Below are positions 17,178-24,564 of a stretch of 64,000 bases of DNA, piece by piece (the stretch's first letter is position 1; each line of letters starts with the position of its first letter). Source of the stretch: a virus; IMG/VR virus record IMGVR_UViG_3300028394_000044, positions 98,300 to 162,299 of that record; one strand, written 5' to 3'. The translations under genes were made by a program, and so were the position numbers. The notes beneath the pieces were generated by a model that was not told where the DNA came from, searched no databases, and was given only the letters and a program-made list of their open reading frames with translations.

Positions 17178-17212
17178 AAACCCCTAGAATCCAAAGTTCT
17201 AGGGGTTTTTTC
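17178..17212 (+). terminator. Intrinsic terminator (possible attenuator)
   Basis: AAACCCCTAGAA-loop-TTCTAGGGGTTTTTT. Confidence 0.85.
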
Positions 17213-17250: not shown

Positions 17251-17307
17251 TTGACAGTTGCATCGCCATCTGTTACAATGAGGTAGTTCTTTAAAAATTT
17301 GTAGAGT
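17251..17307 (+). promoter_or_regulatory. tRNA operon promoter P1 with boxA-like leader
   Basis: TTGACA-17-TACAAT, then GTTCTTTAAAAATTTGTAGAGT. Confidence 0.75.
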
Positions 17308-17314
17308 AATATTT

Positions 17315-17389
17315 ACCCGGTTAGCCAAGCGGAAAGGCAATGGACTTTGACTCCATGATGCGTAGGTTCGATCCCTCCACCGGGTGCCA
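17315..17389 (+). tRNA. tRNA-Gln(TTG)
   Basis: Cloverleaf; ATGGA-CT TTG AC-TCCAT; encoded CCA. Confidence 0.92.
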
Positions 17390-17427
17390 TATTAAAATTC
17401 ATTTAATGAGTGAGTTTCAGTATGTCT

Positions 17428-17519
17428 GGAAAGTAATGCAGGTGGGTTGGTCCGCCGACCAGCCTTGAAAACTGGGTTCTCAGAAATGGGATGGGGTTCG
17501 ACTCCTCTGCTTTCCGCCA
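17428..17519 (+). tRNA. tRNA-Ser(TGA)
   Basis: Long variable arm; CT TGA AA loop; GCCA end. Confidence 0.88.
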
Positions 17520-17539
17520 ATTTTTAAGGAGTGAATTAT

Positions 17540-17920
17540 ATGTTGTGTGTAAATTTTGAATCCCTATTAGGGAAAGTTTTAAAAGAAGTTGATGTTGATA
17601 ATGATAACATCAAATTTGTTACTGTTGATGGTGAAGTGTACAACATGTACCATGACCAAGATTGTTGCGAGTCTGTTTCAGTTGAGTCCGTTGTTGGTGA
17701 TGTTCAAGACCTGATCGGTGTTCCATTGCTTGTTGCTGAAGAGTCATCGAGCAATGAAAATCCAGAAGGTGCTGAAGTGCCAAATTACCAAGATTCGTTC
17801 ACATGGACATTCTACAAGCTAGCCACTATCAAAGGTTATGTTGACATTCGTTGGTATGGTGAGTCTAATGGCTACTATTCCGAAAGCGTTTCATTGCATA
17901 AAGTGGTAAAAGGAGTTTGA
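17540..17920 (+). CDS. Conserved hypothetical phage protein
   Basis: HDQDCCESV...WYGESNGYYS. Confidence 0.7.
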   Translation: MLCVNFESLLGKVLKEVDVDNDNIKFVTVDGEVYNMYHDQDCCESVSVESVVGDVQDLIGVPLLVAEESSSNENPEGAEVPNYQDSFTWTFYKLATIKGYVDIRWYGESNGYYSESVSLHKVVKGV

Positions 17921-17921
17921 T

Positions 17922-18485
17922 ATGCCATCAGTATTTCTCGTAAGTGACACACACTTTGGTCATGCCGGTGTATGTCGTTTCACAGATTCTAAAACAAATG
18001 AAAAGATTAGACCATGGACGGATCCAAATGAAATGGATGAAGAAATGGTCAAACGTTGGAATGAAACCGTTGGTCCAAAAGATAAAGTGTATCATCTGGG
18101 TGACGTTGTTATTAACCGTAAATCACTTAGCATTATGCATAGGCTGAATGGTGACAAAGTTCTCATCCGAGGTAACCATGATATTTTTCGTGATGATGAA
18201 TATCGAGTACACTTTCGGGAACTCCGTGCATATCACGTAATGAACGGAATGATTCTTTCTCATATTCCACTTCACCCTGAAAGTCTTGGTCGATTTGGAG
18301 TTAACATTCATGGACACCTTCATACAGGACGTGTTATGAAGGATGAAAAGATTGATACAAGGTACCATTGTGTATGTGTAGAACAAACTGATTTTACTCC
18401 TATTCTTTTTGAAAATGTTATCAAACGAATCAAAGAAGAAGGTGGTGAAGTAGGATTTAGGAACGGTAACGGTCCTACAATGTAA
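17922..18485 (+). CDS. Calcineurin-like metallophosphoesterase
   Basis: SDTHFGH, HLGD, GNHD and HGHLH. Confidence 0.9.
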   Translation: MPSVFLVSDTHFGHAGVCRFTDSKTNEKIRPWTDPNEMDEEMVKRWNETVGPKDKVYHLGDVVINRKSLSIMHRLNGDKVLIRGNHDIFRDDEYRVHFRELRAYHVMNGMILSHIPLHPESLGRFGVNIHGHLHTGRVMKDEKIDTRYHCVCVEQTDFTPILFENVIKRIKEEGGEVGFRNGNGPTM

Positions 18486-18488
18486 TTT

Positions 18489-18578
18489 GGAGAGTGGGCA
18501 GGACGGTAATGCAGTAGATTGCTAATCTATAGACTATAGTAATATGGTCACAGGGTTCGACTCCCTGACTCTCCACCA
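18489..18578 (+). tRNA. tRNA-Ser(GCT)
   Basis: GTAGA-TT GCT AA-TCTAT; long variable arm; CCA. Confidence 0.92.
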
Positions 18579-18584
18579 AAAAAT

Positions 18585-18660
18585 GTAGGTGTGACCCGAA
18601 AGGCTAGGGAACAGATTGCAAATCTGTTTTATGCAGGTTCGATTCCTGTCACCTACTCCA
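18585..18660 (+). tRNA. tRNA-Cys(GCA)
   Basis: ACAGA-TT GCA AA-TCTGT; TCCA end. Confidence 0.92.
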
Positions 18661-18768
18661 GTTGTTAAAAAACAACAACATGCAAATAGATGTTGACAAA
18701 ACCTCTGGTTGTGTTATACTCTATTCATGAGTTGAGAAATCAACATGTTCTTTAAAAATTTGTAGAGT
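18661..18768 (+). promoter_or_regulatory. GTTG-N8-CAAC palindrome plus tRNA operon promoter P2 with boxA-like leader
   Basis: TTGACA 18693; TATACT 18715; TGTTCTTTAAAAATTTGTAGAGT at 18746. Confidence 0.75.
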
Positions 18769-18775
18769 TTAATTT

Positions 18776-18850
18776 ACTCCGTTCGTCTATCGGTTAGGAC
18801 ACCGGGTTTTCAACCCGATAAGACCAGTTCGATTCTGGTACGGAGTACCA
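18776..18850 (+). tRNA. tRNA-Glu(TTC)
   Basis: Cloverleaf; TT TTC AA loop; CCA. Confidence 0.9.
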
Positions 18851-18967
18851 TATTAAAACATATTACAGGTTGGGCAGTATTCGCGGTGCTGCTATTTGGG
18901 TATTATGAACTAGATAATTACTAGCATCGATACTAAGATACGTAGTATGTTTTAATATGGTAGAAAT

Positions 18968-19042
18968 GCCTTGGTAGCTTAATGGTAAAGCAGGCGACTC
19001 ATAATCGCTTGAGTGGGAGTTCAATTCTCTCTCAAGGCACCA
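18968..19042 (+). tRNA. tRNA-Ile2(CAT)
   Basis: GGCGA-CT CAT AA-TCGCT anticodon arm as in bacterial lysidine tRNA-Ile2. Confidence 0.85.
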
Positions 19043-19048
19043 AGATTC

Positions 19049-19123
19049 GGGGGTATAACTTAACGGCTAAAGTATCTGGCTTTTAACCAGGTAATCCGAG
19101 TTCGATTCTCGGTACCCCTACCA
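19049..19123 (+). tRNA. tRNA-Lys(TTT)
   Basis: CT TTT AA loop; CCA. Confidence 0.92.
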
Positions 19124-19134
19124 AAACAATTTTA

Positions 19135-19216
19135 GGAGATGATGCTCTAATGGTAGGGCAGCGGACTGTAACTCCGTGGCTTCGGCAAGTAGGTTCGATT
19201 CCTACCATCTCCACCA
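19135..19216 (+). tRNA. tRNA-Tyr(GTA)
   Basis: GCGGA-CT GTA AC-TCCGT; variable arm; CCA. Confidence 0.92.
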
Positions 19217-19289
19217 AGCCGAACAGTGTAGCAATACACTCAATGTTTGTTAGTTTTAATGGGTACGTATAGAAACTATCACAAATTTA

Positions 19290-19364
19290 GGTGCGTTCAT
19301 ATAATGGTCATTATCTCGGATTGTCTATCCGAAGACGGGGGTTCGATTCCCCCACGCATCGCCA
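19290..19364 (+). tRNA. tRNA-Asp(GTC)
   Basis: TCGGA-TT GTC TA-TCCGA; GCCA. Confidence 0.92.
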
Positions 19365-19366
19365 AT

Positions 19367-19445
19367 TTTGTGGCAAGGAAAGTAAAAGGAGAATGGGCAA
19401 CGAAAAGGATTTGAAGCCTTTAGTGGATACCTCACCTGCCATAAA
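19367..19445 (+). ncRNA. Candidate small structured RNA between tRNAs
   Basis: Closing stem TTTGTGGCA/TGCCATAAA with internal hairpins. Confidence 0.35.
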
Positions 19446-19455
19446 TTTTTATTAT

Positions 19456-19531
19456 TCCCCAATAGCTCAGTTGGTAGAGCGTTCCGCTGTTAACGGAAAT
19501 GTCGGTGGGTCGGAGCCATCTTGGGGAGCCA
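19456..19531 (+). tRNA. tRNA-Asn(GTT), atypical T-loop
   Basis: TTCCG-CT GTT AA-CGGAA; T-loop reads GTCGGAG. Confidence 0.85.
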
Positions 19532-19534
19532 AAT

Positions 19535-19745
19535 TTTGTAAGTGTCAGCAAGTGAAGTCACGCTATTCAGTATTCTTCAAAGGTACTGTATAGTAGAAGG
19601 TTTTGGGTTCAACTCCCACCCGCGGGGAACTGCGGAGGTCTGTAAAGGAGACAAACTGGATGAATCCCAAGTGACGTACCGAGTCCCGGCCGGCTTAATT
19701 ACACGGGTGAATGGTTGCTATAACGATGGGGCAACAACTTACAAA
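19535..19745 (+). ncRNA. Unidentified multi-branched structured RNA (about 210 nt)
   Basis: Terminal stem TTTGTAAGT/ACTTACAAA; GTCAC/GTGAC; several GC-rich hairpins. Confidence 0.65.
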
Positions 19746-19754
19746 TTCAACATT

Positions 19755-19830
19755 GCCCCGGTGACGGAATGGTATACGTGTTGGTCTTAGAAACCAAATT
19801 TTAGGAGTTCGAGTCTCCTCTGGGGCACCA
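19755..19830 (+). tRNA. tRNA-Leu(TAG), short variable arm
   Basis: TTGGT-CT TAG AA-ACCAA; ACCA. Confidence 0.9.
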
Positions 19831-19884
19831 AATATCGCCGTGACTGGTGGCGTACAATGAGATAAGTAATCAGTTAACCAAATT

Positions 19885-19960
19885 TGGGCTGTTAGTGATA
19901 ATGGTAGCACAGTGGCTTTGCAAGCCTCGGGCAGGAGTTCGATTCTCCTACGGTCCACCA
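19885..19960 (+). tRNA. tRNA-Ala(TGC)
   Basis: G3:U70 pair; TT TGC AA loop. Confidence 0.9.
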
Positions 19961-19966
19961 AATTTA

Positions 19967-20041
19967 GCTCTTAAAGCATTGCTGGCGATGCACGGGTCTT
20001 GTAAGCCTGAGAATACAGTTCGATTCTGTATGAGAGCACCA
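19967..20041 (+). tRNA. tRNA-Thr(TGT)
   Basis: CT TGT AA loop; CCA. Confidence 0.9.
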
Positions 20042-20048
20042 AGTTTTT

Positions 20049-20122
20049 CTCCGATTAGTGAAATGGCATCACCCGTGGTTTGGGACCATGAAGCGCAAGT
20101 TCGATTCTTGCATCGGAGACCA
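20049..20122 (+). tRNA. tRNA-Pro(TGG)
   Basis: C1:G72; TT TGG GA loop; ACCA. Confidence 0.9.
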
Positions 20123-20130
20123 GTTTTTAT

Positions 20131-20201
20131 TGCGGGTATTCAGGGTATCGGTAAGTCTCATAAGCTCTACCTAGTGGGTTCGAATCCCACACCCGCTACC
20201 A
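20131..20201 (+). tRNA. Atypical initiator-like tRNA-Met(CAT)
   Basis: T1:T72 mismatch; CT CAT AA loop; good T arm; reduced D arm; 71 nt. Confidence 0.6.
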
Positions 20202-20206
20202 GTTTT

Positions 20207-20281
20207 GGTGATATAGTTCAATGGTAGAACACCACCTTCATACGGTGACTGTTGGGAGTTCAAGTCTCTCTATCACCACCA
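20207..20281 (+). tRNA. tRNA-Met(CAT), elongator
   Basis: CACC-TT CAT AC-GGTG; ACCA. Confidence 0.85.
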
Positions 20282-20286
20282 AATAT

Positions 20287-20364
20287 GCGTCCTTAGTTCA
20301 ACTGGATAGAGCACCGGGCTACGAACCCGTGAGGTTGGGAGTTCGAATCTCTCAGGACGCACCA
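20287..20364 (+). tRNA. tRNA-Arg(ACG)
   Basis: CGGG-CT ACG AA-CCCG; CCA. Confidence 0.92.
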
Positions 20365-20365
20365 A

Positions 20366-20590
20366 GACCCGTCAGAGTAACGTCTGGCTACTGTGACACG
20401 CAGGAAGTGAAGTGAGTTCGTTACTCAAGTGTGGTACTACTCTTACCGAAGTAGCGTTGGCAATACGAGAATTCTTTTTGGTTGGGAAGCGGGTGGAAGG
20501 TGTGTGTTACAAGGCGTTGAACCGAACGGGGAGCCGAAGTAACAACGGTGCGAGCTGACACACTAAATTACCGCCGCAGAAAGAAAGCAT
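20366..20590 (+). ncRNA. Unidentified structured RNA (about 225 nt)
   Basis: Nested stems GCTAC/GTAGC, TTCTTT/AAAGAA, GTGTGT/ACACAC and GTTAC/GTAAC; GC-rich. Confidence 0.6.
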
Positions 20591-20593
20591 TAT

Positions 20594-20669
20594 ACCCTAA
20601 TAGCTCAGCGGTAGCAGCACCGTCTTGATAAGGCGTAGGTCGGTGGTTCGAATCCACCTTAGGGTACCA
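20594..20669 (+). tRNA. tRNA-Ile(GAT)
   Basis: TT GAT AA loop; ACCA. Confidence 0.92.
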
Positions 20670-20701
20670 GATTGCACAGTAGTTCTCAAGACTGATGTTA
20701 T

Positions 20702-20709
20702 TATAAATA
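20702..20709 (+). promoter_or_regulatory. T4-type late promoter
   Basis: TATAAATA upstream of the HNH gene. Confidence 0.7.
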
Positions 20710-20726
20710 TCCATAAAGGAGATTGT

Positions 20727-21077
20727 ATGAAGACAATTACATCAGGAAAAAACTACCAAGGATTATTAAAGTTTAATAAGAGTAGAAAATTTCCAACAGA
20801 AGATATTCTTGTTGAAAACTCAAGTTATGCTAGACATAACTTAAAAAGAAGAATATTGGAAGAAAAATTAATTCAATATAAATGTGCATGTTGTAATCTT
20901 GATAATGAATGGAATGATAAGCCAATTGTTTTACAATTGGATCATATTAACGGTGTAAACAATGACCATAGATTGGAAAATTTAAGGTTTCTTTGTCCAA
21001 ATTGCCATTCACAACAAGACACATATGCAGCTAAAAATAGGTTTAATCCGAAAAGAAAACCTAAAAAATATGTATAA
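20727..21077 (+). CDS. HNH endonuclease (possibly homing)
   Basis: CACC..LQLDHINGVNNDHRLENLRFLCPNCH; AAGGAG RBS. Confidence 0.9.
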   Translation: MKTITSGKNYQGLLKFNKSRKFPTEDILVENSSYARHNLKRRILEEKLIQYKCACCNLDNEWNDKPIVLQLDHINGVNNDHRLENLRFLCPNCHSQQDTYAAKNRFNPKRKPKKYV

Positions 21078-21078
21078 A

Positions 21079-21152
21079 ATCTCCGTAGTGTAATGGCAGC
21101 ATAAGGATCTCCAAAATCTTTGGTGGGAGTTCGAATCTCTCCGGGGATGCCA
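21079..21152 (+). tRNA. tRNA-Trp(CCA)
   Basis: AGGAT-CT CCA AA-ATCTT; GCCA. Confidence 0.9.
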
Positions 21153-21172
21153 AGTTTTTAAAGGTTATCAAT

Positions 21173-21661
21173 ATGAAAAAATTCGATATAAACGAAGTCA
21201 AAGAATTCCTTGCAAAACAAGGACCAAACACCAAAGTATATCTTGGTGCTGACTCTGAAAGAATCAGAGTGAATGAAGTTTGGTATGCTGACTACGCTTT
21301 AGCTGTTGTAGTTCATATTGATGGATGTCATGGCTGTAAGATTTTTGGTTTTGTTGACCGTGAATTAGATTACGACCATAAGAAAAGTAAACCTGCTATG
21401 CGTCTAATGACAGAAGTGTATAAGGTTTCGGAATTGTTTCAATCATTACAAGATGTGTTGGAAGATTATCATGTTGAAGTCCATTTGGATTTAAATAAAT
21501 CAGATGAGTTCGGTAGTTCTTGTGTTGTTCAGCAAGCGATTGGTTATATCAAAGGTACATGTAACATGACACCAATGGTTAAACCTGATGCGCCTGCGGC
21601 TTCATTCTGTGCAGATCGTTTAAAACGGATTTTAGCAGAACAAGAATTAGCGACTACATAA
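21173..21661 (+). CDS. RNase H-like YkuK (DUF458) family protein
   Basis: YLGADS, EVHLDLN and KPDAPAASFCAD. Confidence 0.8.
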   Translation: MKKFDINEVKEFLAKQGPNTKVYLGADSERIRVNEVWYADYALAVVVHIDGCHGCKIFGFVDRELDYDHKKSKPAMRLMTEVYKVSELFQSLQDVLEDYHVEVHLDLNKSDEFGSSCVVQQAIGYIKGTCNMTPMVKPDAPAASFCADRLKRILAEQELATT

Positions 21662-21667
21662 TATTAT

Positions 21668-21741
21668 GCGGGATTAGTTTAGTGGTAAAACGTCATCCTT
21701 CCAAGTTGAAGTTGCGAGTTCGATTCTCGCATCCCGCTCCA
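21668..21741 (+). tRNA. tRNA-Gly(TCC)
   Basis: GCGGG acceptor; CT TCC AA loop; TCCA. Confidence 0.9.
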
Positions 21742-21821
21742 TATACAAACACATTTTGATGCCTATAAGATTGTAGATTTGATCGCCTACGATACGGTGC
21801 GTGATGAGTGTGTTTCTATAT

Positions 21822-21895
21822 GCGGGTATGATGTAAAGGTAGCCTGTGACCTTGCCAAGGTTAGTGTGAGAGTTCGATTCTCTCTACCCGCTCCA
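21822..21895 (+). tRNA. tRNA-Gly(GCC)
   Basis: TGACC-TT GCC AA-GGTTA; TCCA. Confidence 0.9.
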
Positions 21896-21916
21896 ATCAA
21901 TTAAAGGTGGTTCATT

Positions 21917-22525
21917 ATGGTTATTGTTCCTGTTTTTGCAACAAATATTTTTATGACAGAGTTAAAACCTGAAGACTATGAATTGGTCCAGGAAGAATTG
22001 CAAAGAGTGTATGATGATAATACACAAAATAAATTATTTAATGATCCGTGGAATAACGGACGTATGAGATTAAGTCACAATGCATTTGAAGGTGATATTA
22101 TAAAAAAATATGACCTCAAAAATTTCAAACGAGTTCTGACTGATGCTGTTGCTTTCTTAAATGAAGATGGTAAAGTTAGAGCGTTTAATGTTGTGAATTC
22201 TTGGATGACAAGCCTGAAAAAAGGCATGTATGCTCATAATCATCAACATATTGCCCCGTATGGTTCGCATATTTCTGGTGTCTATTACTTTAAAACGGCA
22301 GAAGACGATTCACCAATTGTTTTTGAGAATCCAAATTTGTCTAATGTTTGTTTTAGTCCAGCATTAGGTTCTGAAGAAACACTATCATGTAAACCTATTC
22401 AAGGACACTTGCTGATGTTCCCATCTTGGTTGAGACACTATATTGAAACTCAACTTGATGACCGAGAAAGAGTTAGTGTTTCTTTTACTTTAGGTCTAGA
22501 AAATCCATATCTCGATAAATGGTAA
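21917..22525 (+). CDS. 2OG-Fe(II) oxygenase (TIGR02466-like)
   Basis: HNHQH, ISGVYY, FPSWLRH and RVSVSF. Confidence 0.85.
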   Translation: MVIVPVFATNIFMTELKPEDYELVQEELQRVYDDNTQNKLFNDPWNNGRMRLSHNAFEGDIIKKYDLKNFKRVLTDAVAFLNEDGKVRAFNVVNSWMTSLKKGMYAHNHQHIAPYGSHISGVYYFKTAEDDSPIVFENPNLSNVCFSPALGSEETLSCKPIQGHLLMFPSWLRHYIETQLDDRERVSVSFTLGLENPYLDKW

Positions 22526-22529
22526 TTAT

Positions 22530-22604
22530 GGAGTTGTTAGTTTAGTGGTAAAACCGCGGGTTGTGATTCCGCTATCACGGGTTCGATTCCCGTACTTCTC
22601 CCCA
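22530..22604 (+). tRNA. tRNA-His(GTG)
   Basis: G-1:C73; TT GTG AT loop. Confidence 0.88.
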
Positions 22605-22607
22605 AGC

Positions 22608-22682
22608 GCCTTGTTAACTCAGCGGTAGAGTGTCTCCCTTACAAGGAGAAGGTCGGCGGTTCGATCCCGTCACAAGGTACCA
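22608..22682 (+). tRNA. tRNA-Val(TAC)
   Basis: TCTCC-CT TAC AA-GGAGA; ACCA. Confidence 0.92.
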
Positions 22683-22686
22683 ATTT

Positions 22687-22760
22687 GCTCCCATAGTACA
22701 GTGATAGTACACGCCCTTGGTACGGGTGAGACCTGAGTTTGATTCTCGGTGAGAGCACCA
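22687..22760 (+). tRNA. tRNA-Thr(GGT)
   Basis: CGCCC-TT GGT AC-GGGTG; ACCA. Confidence 0.88.
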
Positions 22761-22765
22761 ATTTA

Positions 22766-22841
22766 GCAACTTTAGCTGATGTGGTCATAGCGGTGGTCTG
22801 AAGAACCATTGAAGTAGGTTCGATTCCTACAGGTTGCACCA
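22766..22841 (+). tRNA. tRNA-Phe(GAA)
   Basis: GTGGT-CT GAA GA-ACCAT; ACCA. Confidence 0.9.
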
Positions 22842-22848
22842 AAATTCT

Positions 22849-22924
22849 GCGGATATAGCGCAAAGGTAGAGGCAAGGGACTTAAAATCCCTCAAGTCTGG
22901 GTTCGAATCCCAGTATCCGCACCA
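22849..22924 (+). tRNA. tRNA-Leu(TAA), short variable arm
   Basis: AGGGA-CT TAA AA-TCCCT; ACCA. Confidence 0.9.
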
Positions 22925-22927
22925 TAT

Positions 22928-23004
22928 GCCCTTGTAGCCCAATTGGTAGAGGCAATGGATTCAAAATCCATTCAGTGTCGGTTCGAATCTGACCAAGGGT
23001 ACCA
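22928..23004 (+). tRNA. tRNA-Leu(CAA), short variable arm
   Basis: ATGGA-TT CAA AA-TCCAT; ACCA. Confidence 0.9.
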
Positions 23005-23010
23005 CACAAT

Positions 23011-23085
23011 GTCTCTATAGTTCAACGGACAGAATAGGGACCTCCTAAGTCCCGGATACAGGTTCGATTCCTGTTGGAGACACCA
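23011..23085 (+). tRNA. tRNA-Arg(CCT)
   Basis: GGGAC-CT CCT AA-GTCCC; ACCA. Confidence 0.92.
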
Positions 23086-23130
23086 AATGGTAAACATGTA
23101 AATAATATATTAACTCTACAAATTTTTTAT

Positions 23131-23205
23131 CTGGCGTTCGTTCAATGGATAGGACAAGATTCTTCTAAAGTCTTTATAGAGGTTCGATTCCTCTACGCCG
23201 GACCA
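23131..23205 (+). tRNA. tRNA-Arg(TCT)
   Basis: AGATT-CT TCT AA-AGTCT; ACCA. Confidence 0.9.
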
Positions 23206-23894
23206 CCAATATAATATTTTTTTAAAACGGCATCAACTAAACTATCGATACTGTTTACGATTTGCACGCCATTACATTCGACTTCTCTAATCGCTAATGG
23301 TATCTCTGTGCAACCTAATACAATAGATTTTGCACCACGCTCTATTAAACTTTGTATTACAATCATCAATATTGAATGTGCTTGATCTATATTTCCACCC
23401 TTGATTAAATCTATTGCATGTTGAACTAGTGTGTCCATTTCTACTATAGAAGGCACAATACAATCCCATCCAAATTTATTCAACATGTATTGATACAACC
23501 CGAATTCGATTGTGCTTTGGGTTCCTATAATTCCTATGGTTGTATTACTGATGCCTATGGAATTTAATGTATCTGCAACACTATCTACAATGTGTATAAT
23601 GGGAACCTCTAATTTAATTAGTTCCTGATACCAAAAATGTGCGGTGTTACATGGTATGACTATTAAATCACAACCTGTAAATTTCAATGCTTGTACACCT
23701 TCTATCAAGTAGGGTAATGGCTCATCATTGCCTTTTCGCATACTTGTGCTACGGTCTGGAATTCTTGGTTCATTCCAAAGAACAAATGGAATATGATCTT
23801 GATCTTTATTAGCAGGAGTTTTTTTAATTAATCTAGTTATAAACTCTGCACTTGCTGCTGGACCCATTCCACCCAAAACTCCCAACTTTTTCAT
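23193..23894 (-). CDS. Aspartate/glutamate racemase family (PLP-independent)
   Basis: MKKLGVLGGMGP; both catalytic cysteines present (IPCNTAH, LGCTEIP). Confidence 0.93.
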   Translation of the reverse strand: MKKLGVLGGMGPAASAEFITRLIKKTPANKDQDHIPFVLWNEPRIPDRSTSMRKGNDEPLPYLIEGVQALKFTGCDLIVIPCNTAHFWYQELIKLEVPIIHIVDSVADTLNSIGISNTTIGIIGTQSTIEFGLYQYMLNKFGWDCIVPSIVEMDTLVQHAIDLIKGGNIDQAHSILMIVIQSLIERGAKSIVLGCTEIPLAIREVECNGVQIVNSIDSLVDAVLKKYYIGGPA

Positions 23895-23955
23895 AACAGT
23901 ACAACCAGTAAAATAATTATTATGATGACACAGAATATAACAGAAGGAAGTCTCA

Positions 23956-24564
23956 TCATTTTTTAAATAATAAACTACTAGCAACATGCATCACAGCTTG
24001 CTCATTAGCAACCTCATCTGGGTCAGGTTTTGATTTCCATCCAACTGAAATTTGTCCAATAAATGTACCGGGTTCCGCAGGTACACTTATACGACACATA
24101 TATTTTACGCCTCTTTCAACATAAACGAATCCCATAAAACTTTGAGGTGTTAGGTAATCTTGACATGGTACTTTTCCTGACATCATTGAAATCACATCAT
24201 TATTATTGTCGTAATTTTTAGTCAGTAGACCAACATCTGTGCCATAGTAATCTTTTTCAATTCCACCGCTGCGAGTAGTAAAATAAACTAGCTTGCGCGT
24301 GTTTAATATTGTATTGACTTGAAATACTGCAATCAATTCCGCTTGGCTATATTTCAATATAAAATTTGAGGCTTTTTCATACTCTCCGTTCATATGCGGT
24401 AATGCTTTTTCGGCACGATAACTTGCCATAAATGCATCTTTTTCGGAATATAAAAACCAACCACCGAATCCAAATACACATAAAATTATAACCGCAAATA
24501 GGCGAAATGGACTCTCGCCTATCCAAGTCAATAAACTAAGAAGTATTTCCTTAGCTTTGTCCAC
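23956..24564 (-). CDS. Single-TM protein with GAF-like periplasmic domain, T4 holin T-like
   Basis: Amphipathic N-terminus, one TMD, C-terminal YMCRISVP..FIGQISVGW resembling the T4 T periplasmic domain. Confidence 0.5.
   Translation of the reverse strand: MDKAKEILLSLLTWIGESPFRLFAVIILCVFGFGGWFLYSEKDAFMASYRAEKALPHMNGEYEKASNFILKYSQAELIAVFQVNTILNTRKLVYFTTRSGGIEKDYYGTDVGLLTKNYDNNNDVISMMSGKVPCQDYLTPQSFMGFVYVERGVKYMCRISVPAEPGTFIGQISVGWKSKPDPDEVANEQAVMHVASSLLFKK

Follow-up and report, generated by a model that had tools for sequence, protein, structure and literature searches.

How is a long array of transfer RNA (tRNA) genes on a phage genome transcribed from end to end, and how is its precursor then brought to maturation? 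The question is raised by an operon of 27 tRNA genes (17315-23205, all on the plus strand; ARAGORN) in the 64,000-nucleotide (nt) stretch analysed here, the "window," which spans positions 98,300 to 162,299 of IMG/VR record IMGVR_UViG_3300028394_000044 and is the final 64 kb of this 162,299-bp virus with direct terminal repeats. The operon has two leaders and, near its 3' end, a short trailer complementary to both of them, and a sequence-only reading had proposed that it mimics a bacterial ribosomal RNA (rrn) operon, complete with a boxA and a processing stalk. Our analysis supports that proposal: the 22-nt leader is identical to the spacer boxA and the 5' helix strand of host rrn operons, and we consider it probable that the tRNA operon is an rrn-like unit in which Nus factors would load on boxA, a leader-trailer helix would close the array, and host RNase III would likely take part in its processing.

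An exact-match search recovered the pairing elements where they had been described. The 15-mer AAAAATTTGTAGAGT occurs on the plus strand at 17293-17307 and again at 18754-18768, and its reverse complement lies at 23113-23127, between the 26th tRNA gene, Arg(cct), and the 27th, Arg(tct), ending 3 nt 5' of the latter and 4.4 and 5.8 kb from the two leaders. The 15-mer is the 3' part of 22 nt common to both leaders, GTTCTTTAAAAATTTGTAGAGT, which start at 17286 and 18747. The complementary strands, both on the plus strand and flanking the array, would be on one transcript, as a leader-trailer helix would have them, and when the whole transcript was scanned for RNA duplexes the trailer was the top partner of both leaders (-19.6 and -18.6 kcal/mol, compared with -15.0 and -13.5 for the next best). 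The length of the inverted pair alone is no proof, because about 5.6 inverted pairs of at least 15 nt are expected by chance somewhere in 64 kb of this composition. For a stretch within the operon that is the reverse complement of some 15-mer in the shared leader, the expectation is 4.6e-4, and the pair is not a chance one, since it is kept in related phages (see below).

The 22 nt open with GTTCTTTAAAAA, which is similar to the E. coli spacer boxA (GCTCTTTAAAAA) and, by sequence and leader position, is a boxA of the rrn type, with Nus binding predicted; the whole 162-kb phage genome holds two exact copies, both at these leaders. The copies start 7 nt past the -10 element of promoter P1 and 27 nt past that of promoter P2 (most relatives are alike in this), and P1 and P2, one 5' of each leader, are the two best sigma70-like promoters of the region. 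A promoter at the P1 position is also found in relatives, the exception being the L048 group, where none was seen 5' of leader 1. In five relatives (L048, L055, L062, L064, and L066), a tRNA-Met and a terminator-like hairpin with its T-run stand 5' of leader 1 where a promoter would be expected, and the boxA of leader 1 in the L048 group may act on read-through transcripts. The segment with the small hairpin directly 5' of boxA copy 2 (18731-18744) recurs in three relatives (L057, L061, and L063), host spacers likewise have a hairpin directly 5' of boxA, and the phage hairpin may be a boxB equivalent. A terminator scan found no strong plus-strand terminator between the leaders and the trailer.

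The bacterial counterpart of the leader was sought in one genome from each of 185,579 species with the 21-mer GTTCTTTAAAAATTTGTAGAG as the query. Exact matches were found at five loci in four genomes, all of them Burkholderiales (Curvibacter, Leptothrix, Caldimonas, and an uncultured betaproteobacterium), and the final T was confirmed in these matches, so that the full 22-mer GTTCTTTAAAAATTTGTAGAGT is present. Rfam annotation places it in the 16S-23S spacer, past tRNA-Ile and tRNA-Ala and 180-240 nt 5' of the 23S gene; its first 12 nt are the boxA that also stands 5' of 16S, and the continuation TTTGTAGAGT is found in the spacer copy only. In three of the four genomes the region separating the 3' end of 23S from the 5S gene holds the complement ACTCTACAAATT or a version of it that is compatible through G.U, and in the fourth (Curvibacter, L068) it holds ACTCTACAAA, 10 nt; the pairing is perfect over 21 bp in Leptothrix (L070). 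Of 401 genomes sampled from one Burkholderiales family, 145 have the 22-mer when up to two changes are allowed, with copy numbers like those of rrn operons; most of the changes affect two positions (TTYRTAGAGT) and one position within boxA.

These changes are matched on the far side of the 23S gene. Twelve operons with variant leaders were compared, and they pair leader AATTCATAGAGT with trailer ACTCTATGAATT, leader AATTCGTAGAGT with trailer ACTCTACGAATT (with one G.U variant, ACTCTGCGAATT, in L074), and leader AATTTATAGAGT with trailer CTCTATAAATT (L076 and L078) or with TTCTATAAATT, again through G.U (L083), for a total of three double changes together with G.U states; no such trailer was seen in one of the twelve (L079), whose leader diverges past GTAGAGT. 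Because the strand 3' of 23S changes in step with the leader, this covariation shows the host element to be a true RNA helix formed over a long distance. It begins immediately past boxA and is the base of the pre-23S leader-trailer stalk. The phage elements are identical to it in 22 of 22 leader positions and in 12 of 12 positions of the trailer core, an identity we read as homology, and the similarity ends exactly at 22 nt and at 12 nt, the flanks being unrelated.

The phage itself has T4-like baseplate proteins, and its closest isolates by the baseplate wedge protein, at about 40% identity, are Pelagibacter, Methylophilales, and cyanobacterial myophages; a search of isolated phages for DNA nearly identical to the operon returned scattered tRNA matches only and no close relative. 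We regard the source as an uncultured T4-like lake phage, with a Burkholderiales bacterium as its predicted host. Relatives were found among viral contigs by exact-motif scans for the leader or a host-type variant of it (44, then 10 more), and in the five tested the baseplate wedge protein is 39-48% identical to that of the window phage. It had been suggested that loss of the trailer in relatives would speak against the helix; each of the 20 records that reach across the 3' end of the array in fact has the core, always on the strand of the tRNAs. Among 24 unique trailers, a stretch of 13 nt is conserved at 0.9 or more, compared with 0.3-0.6 in the flanks, and the trailer, which about 30 related contigs retain, follows its leader at 2.1 to 9.1 kb over all pairs. 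The tRNAs past the trailer differ from relative to relative: none, Arg(tct), Arg(tct) and Met, Gly(tcc) and Met, Met, Gly(gcc) with Thr and Gly(tcc), or Val(gac) with Leu(caa). What stays constant across the relatives is the complementarity to the leader and the location near the end of the array, and nothing else. One relative (L029) has two trailer-like elements past its leaders, one beginning ACTCTACAAATGG and the other ACTCTACAAGTTTTT, each better suited to one of the leaders.

Compensatory change in related phages had been named as the check on the helix, and it is seen: there are three leader variants, each with a matching trailer, as well as matched extensions particular to single lineages (pair counts were made by script). 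Beside the window type, leader TTTATAGAGT (contig reading GTTCTTTAAAAATTTATAGAGT) goes with trailer ACTCTATAAA (ACTCTATAAATTT) in G432, G433, and G434, and leader TTCGTAGAGT (contig reading GTTCTTTAAAAATTCGTAGAGT) with trailer ACTCTACGAA, read ACTCTACGAATT, 9.08 kb 3' of it in G430 and G431, where an extension of their own, ATTCGTA, makes a perfect 19-bp helix. The two variable core positions are thus found in the states TG/CA, TA/TA, and CG/CG, and the trailer variant ACTCTACAAGTTTTT keeps its pairing through G.U. The extension 3' of the leader GAGT and 5' of the trailer ACTC is lineage-specific (CAA, TAATA, TTAT, TATTAT, or ATTCGTA) and matched within each genome, with a mean of 4.46 contiguous extra pairs compared with 2.56 +/- 0.30 when trailers were permuted among genomes; none of 10,000 permutations reached the observed value, a count that is not a formal probability because the sequences are phylogenetically related. 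Over 39 unique phage pairs the contiguous helix measures 11-22 bp (median 16), with duplex energies of -14 to -31 kcal/mol. It starts with the A-run and leaves the 8-nt boxA core unpaired in nearly all phages; the trailer of G014 complements nearly all of boxA, over 21 nt. One relative that lacks the four boxA-proximal pairs carries a distal extension of five pairs, so that a 16-bp helix remains.

That leader and trailer are a functionless "relic" of captured host rrn DNA, or a chance match, is a reading that the identity to host rrn segments might invite, as might the expectation of some exact 15-nt inverted pair in 64 kb. We judge it highly improbable: the host similarity stops exactly at the functional 22 nt and 12 nt with unrelated flanks, the elements are kept, with compensatory changes, across phages only 39-48% identical in a structural protein and with randomised flanks around them, and a match to a leader 15-mer within the operon has the low expectation given above. 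Repeats of 15-22 bp in inverted orientation, bracketing 2-9 kb, would also suit an invertible DNA segment in which they are the crossover sites and the tRNA array turns round with respect to its promoters. This is scarcely credible, however, since about 30 related records all have the tRNAs pointing the same way as the leaders, with no flipped copy, and since the repeats in host rrn operons are clearly RNA elements.

A further reading takes the inverted copies as double-stranded DNA sites, either the operator of a phage or host regulator or a promoter element, placed at +1 of P1 and P2 and over a promoter P3 close to where the array ends, and perhaps looping the DNA. It draws on the surroundings of the trailer, which differ among phages. 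Group A has the trailer as the end of the -35 element and the spacer of a near-consensus promoter, TTGACTCTACAAATTTTT-N4/5-TATAAT, an arrangement present in about half of the relatives, and group C has it directly 3' of TTGACA-17-TATAAT; concerted change of identical inverted sites would, moreover, be expected of DNA sites bound by one protein. Against this, in hosts the two sequences pair as RNA around 23S and covary, with G.U intermediates; the register relative to P3 varies among groups; and the extensions are complementary within a genome without being conserved in sequence, while G.U variants of the trailer are tolerated. The L048 group, where the trailer fills the 20-nt gap between two tRNAs, has no -10 element past it, and neither does the window, where the trailer reads TTAACT and no -10 follows at 16-18 bp because the tRNA begins 3 nt after the trailer; the window trailer is accordingly not a promoter by its sequence. 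We regard a DNA site as very unlikely to explain the inverted copies. A promoter-only reading of the trailer was rejected as its common function, given the differing register and the window and L048 groups with no promoter there. Also rejected was the trailer as a boxA leader of an antisense (minus-strand) transcript, the GTTCTTT core being absent from the minus strand in all relatives except G014. A separate observation concerns L054 (6487-6810) and also L056, L059, and L063: they have no tRNA past the trailer, and the promoter overlapping it faces about 300 nt with no open reading frame (ORF) or Rfam match. This stretch holds a conserved segment, ttttaggtaaggttcagca, and is possibly a novel small RNA.

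We return to the rrn-like unit and to how it might work. The identity to the host element, the covariation in hosts, and the conservation and compensatory change in phages can all be read directly from the sequences, and because the operon carries the host boxA and both strands of the host stalk, the tRNA precursor is probably made and closed like an rRNA precursor. The operon would be built like the 23S part of a host rRNA operon, with the tRNA array as the stand-in for 23S rRNA. The spacer boxA past each strong promoter would bring host NusB/NusE, and with them the remaining parts of the rRNA antitermination complex, to the polymerase, which the complex would then carry over some 6 kb of RNA that is highly structured and for the most part untranslated. 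The 5' strand of the helix would be AAAAAUUUGUAGAGU, which overlaps and follows the end of boxA, and its 3' strand, ACUCUACAAAUUUUU, would be transcribed 4.4 or 5.8 kb later, just 5' of the last tRNA. If the boxA-bound complex holds the leader near the RNA exit channel, a helix of 15-20 bp could form as the trailer emerges and close the array of 26 tRNAs into a loop, as the pre-23S helix does; host RNase III would most likely then cut the helix, and the array, separated from the leader and from the last tRNA, would be open to RNase P and 3' trimming. Nus loading, looping with co-transcriptional closing, and RNase III cleavage are the steps that we infer. Candidate hosts do encode RNase III, and a search for an RNase III gene in the phage found none.

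The element of the Burkholderiales rrn operons has the layout known from E. coli, in which a second boxB/A/C set stands 5' of 23S, leader-trailer helices are RNase III substrates, and boxC overlaps the RNase III site (PMC10250234). Nus factors together with SuhB loop boxA to the polymerase, and in reporter assays as well as in vitro the complex withstands Rho when the RNA is untranslated (PMC4807359). Tethering of boxA to the polymerase raises co-transcriptional RNase III cleavage (bioRxiv 10.64898/2026.03.17.712431), and such a tether would favour closure of leader and trailer once the trailer has emerged. The phage helix would work like an rrn stalk and would be derived from one or mimic one, but it encloses no rRNA; Rfam matches within the operon are to tRNAs only, with none at the leader or the trailer.

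Several points weigh against this reading or limit it. Being AU-rich and only 15-16 contiguous pairs long, the window helix falls toward the lower limit of what a classical RNase III substrate would be. In G002 the helix is interrupted by a U-U mismatch or bulge, and the four outermost pairs are missing from G004. The host helix is itself only the base of a longer stalk, 180-240 nt from the 5' end of 23S, and may or may not be the RNase III site there. Most relatives leave one to three tRNAs outside the helix, and in two groups the trailer coincides with a promoter and may thus have a DNA-level role there. The phages offer few independent covariation events, namely three states at two core positions and the extension, and these are to be taken as supportive. 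Finally, 22 nt of identity with the host exceeds what pairing needs, and the reading leaves no place for a sequence-specific factor or for a role in trans.

Some of these points bear on a reading in which the helix does form but its main job is something other than an RNase III cut. One possible job is to shield the 5' and 3' ends of the long precursor from exonucleases and from 5'-end-dependent RNase E. Another is to signal where the antiterminated unit ends, the leader being pulled away from the Nus complex on the polymerase. In a third version, considered because the phage strands are identical to those of the host stalk, they could work in trans on host pre-23S rRNA, or else titrate a host factor. 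The leader-trailer helix has an essential role in E. coli that does not depend on RNase III (PMC10250234). The phage helix is short and AU-rich, its 22 nt of host identity vary at the same two positions as in hosts, which suggests recognition beyond pairing, and the trailer of G014 is complementary to almost the whole boxA (21 nt). Most phages nevertheless leave the 8-nt boxA core unpaired, and what has been copied is a host element of a kind that RNase III is known to cut in E. coli; we hold a main function apart from RNase III to be unlikely. The exact host stalk sequence is kept and its host-type variants are tracked even though pairing would permit drift, which hints at a sequence-specific factor, possibly with a boxC-like function, or at action in trans on host pre-rRNA. 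The stronger proposal, that the element does more than close the precursor and either recruits a sequence-specific rRNA-maturation factor or pairs in trans with host pre-23S strands, we put forward as a rather doubtful one. If it were true, the rRNA machinery would be diverted to a phage "tRNA factory" and host 50S biogenesis disturbed, and the 22-mer would be a host-range determinant and a sequence-based predictor of hosts for uncultured phages.

Set beside the rrn spacer boxA and pre-23S helix of Curvibacter, Leptothrix, Caldimonas, and related Burkholderiales, the phage element has the same 22-nt leader and 12-nt trailer core and the same geometry, with a helix that starts from the end of the 8-nt boxA core and closes a structured RNA of several kilobases; in both, small RNA genes remain outside (5S in the host, one to three tRNAs in the phage), and leader and trailer covary. 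The phage differs in its cargo, a tRNA array with small ORFs on a virus genome instead of 23S rRNA; in its position right past its own promoters, whereas the host element sits in an internal spacer; in its single stem of 13-22 bp, extended into the A-run of boxA, where the host helix is the base of a multi-helix stalk; and in having two alternative leaders for one trailer.

Phages are known to engage the same host factors by other means. Lambda nut (boxA-boxB, with N protein) and HK022 put RNA both bring about a termination-resistant polymerase, a boxA-type RNA signal with host Nus factors being the common theme (PMC2800207). The lambda boxA deviates from the rrn consensus, needs N on boxB, serves mRNA operons, and has no trailer strand, whereas the boxA here is the host rrn sequence itself and comes with a leader-trailer helix; no N-like factor turned up in the work on the window, in which no search was aimed at one. 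Outside rrn, boxA has been described at suhB and other genes (PMC5725501), and it carries the polymerase through long CRISPR arrays (PMC7862264). These cases are alike in that boxA heads a non-rRNA transcript, which for CRISPR is a long untranslated array of small RNAs threatened by Rho, but they have neither a complementary trailer nor a copy of a processing-stalk strand.

The tRNA cluster of phage T4 yields dimeric precursors that pass through RNase P, 3' trimming, and CCA repair. It resembles the present operon in belonging to a T4-like phage and in its clustered tRNA genes, polycistronic precursors, and host maturation enzymes; to our knowledge no rrn-type boxA or end-to-end helix has been described for it, and the literature we searched gave none. 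The sequence-only reading had been unaware of any such description for phage tRNA arrays, and this agrees with our searches on boxA in combination with phage tRNA operons, arrays, or RNase III, which led to work on rrn, lambda, suhB, and CRISPR and to no account of this layout. The operon would then be a case in which a viral tRNA array has taken over the boxA and leader-trailer system of rrn operons, and it adds direct identity with the host pre-23S stalk and compensatory change on both the phage and the host side.

The phage leader variants (TTTG-, TTTA-, and TTCG-TAGAGT) are those that separate rrn spacers among species of one Burkholderiales family, and each phage lineage presumably carries the variant of its own host. 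Since the variant positions match those that differ between host species, the 22-mer may serve as a marker for host prediction in uncultured freshwater phages. Arrays of tRNA genes are common in large phages, and a borrowed host rRNA system would be a testable answer to how they escape Rho and mature a precursor of 2-9 kb; boxA and a helix on a tRNA array may even be a general design principle. Here the rrn leader-trailer logic would be uncoupled from ribosome assembly, which makes the operon a natural test case for the roles of the Nus loop and the helix. The features of the locus are collected in Table 1.

Table 1. Leaders, trailer, and associated signals of the tRNA operon, in positions of the 64,000-nt window.
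Feature	Position	Strand	Remarks
Intrinsic terminator-like hairpin	17178..17208	+	Closes upstream unit, just 5' of P1; 13-bp stem with 5 GC pairs, then T-run
Promoter P1	17251..17279	+	TTGACA-17-TACAAT, extended -10 TG; 11/12 matches, best of region
boxA copy 1, GTTCTTTAAAAA	17286..17297	+	Same as boxA of 16S leader and 16S-23S spacer in Burkholderiales rrn
Helix 5' strand, leader 1	17293..17307	+	Predicted pairing continues to ~17312 past a 1-nt bulge; duplex -19.6 kcal/mol
Enclosed cargo	17315..23085	+	26 tRNA genes, small ORFs, and structured spacers; ARAGORN, ORFs
Promoter P2	18693..18720	+	TTGACA-16-TATACT, extended -10 TG; 11/12 matches
boxB-like hairpin	18731..18744	+	GTTGA-GAAA-TCAAC, directly 5' of boxA copy 2; read from sequence
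boxA copy 2, GTTCTTTAAAAA	18747..18758	+	As copy 1
Helix 5' strand, leader 2 (16 nt)	18754..18769	+	Predicted to pair with 23112-23127; duplex -18.6 kcal/mol
Trailer, helix 3' strand, AACTCTACAAATTTTT	23112..23127	+	Predicted pairing with leader 1 reaches back to 23106
tRNA-Arg(tct)	23131..23205	+	Sole tRNA outside the helix, in the position of 5S rRNA in the host operon; ARAGORN

Three further features of the operon and its 3' border deserve mention. Between tRNA-Gln and the first ORF, 17428-17515 is a tRNA-like element with a T-arm and a CCA-like end that scores 33 bits against Rfam tRNA-Sec (threshold 47 bits) and is not called by ARAGORN. Inverted repeats of 21 nt with 95% complementarity (18846-18866 and 18942-18962), beginning from the CCA end of tRNA-Glu, would form a long hairpin in the spacer 5' of tRNA-Met. 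Past the array, the terminator scan detected no intrinsic terminator between the tRNA operon and a minus-strand unit that converges on it, whose first gene (23193-23987) has its predicted end within the 3' end of the last tRNA gene.

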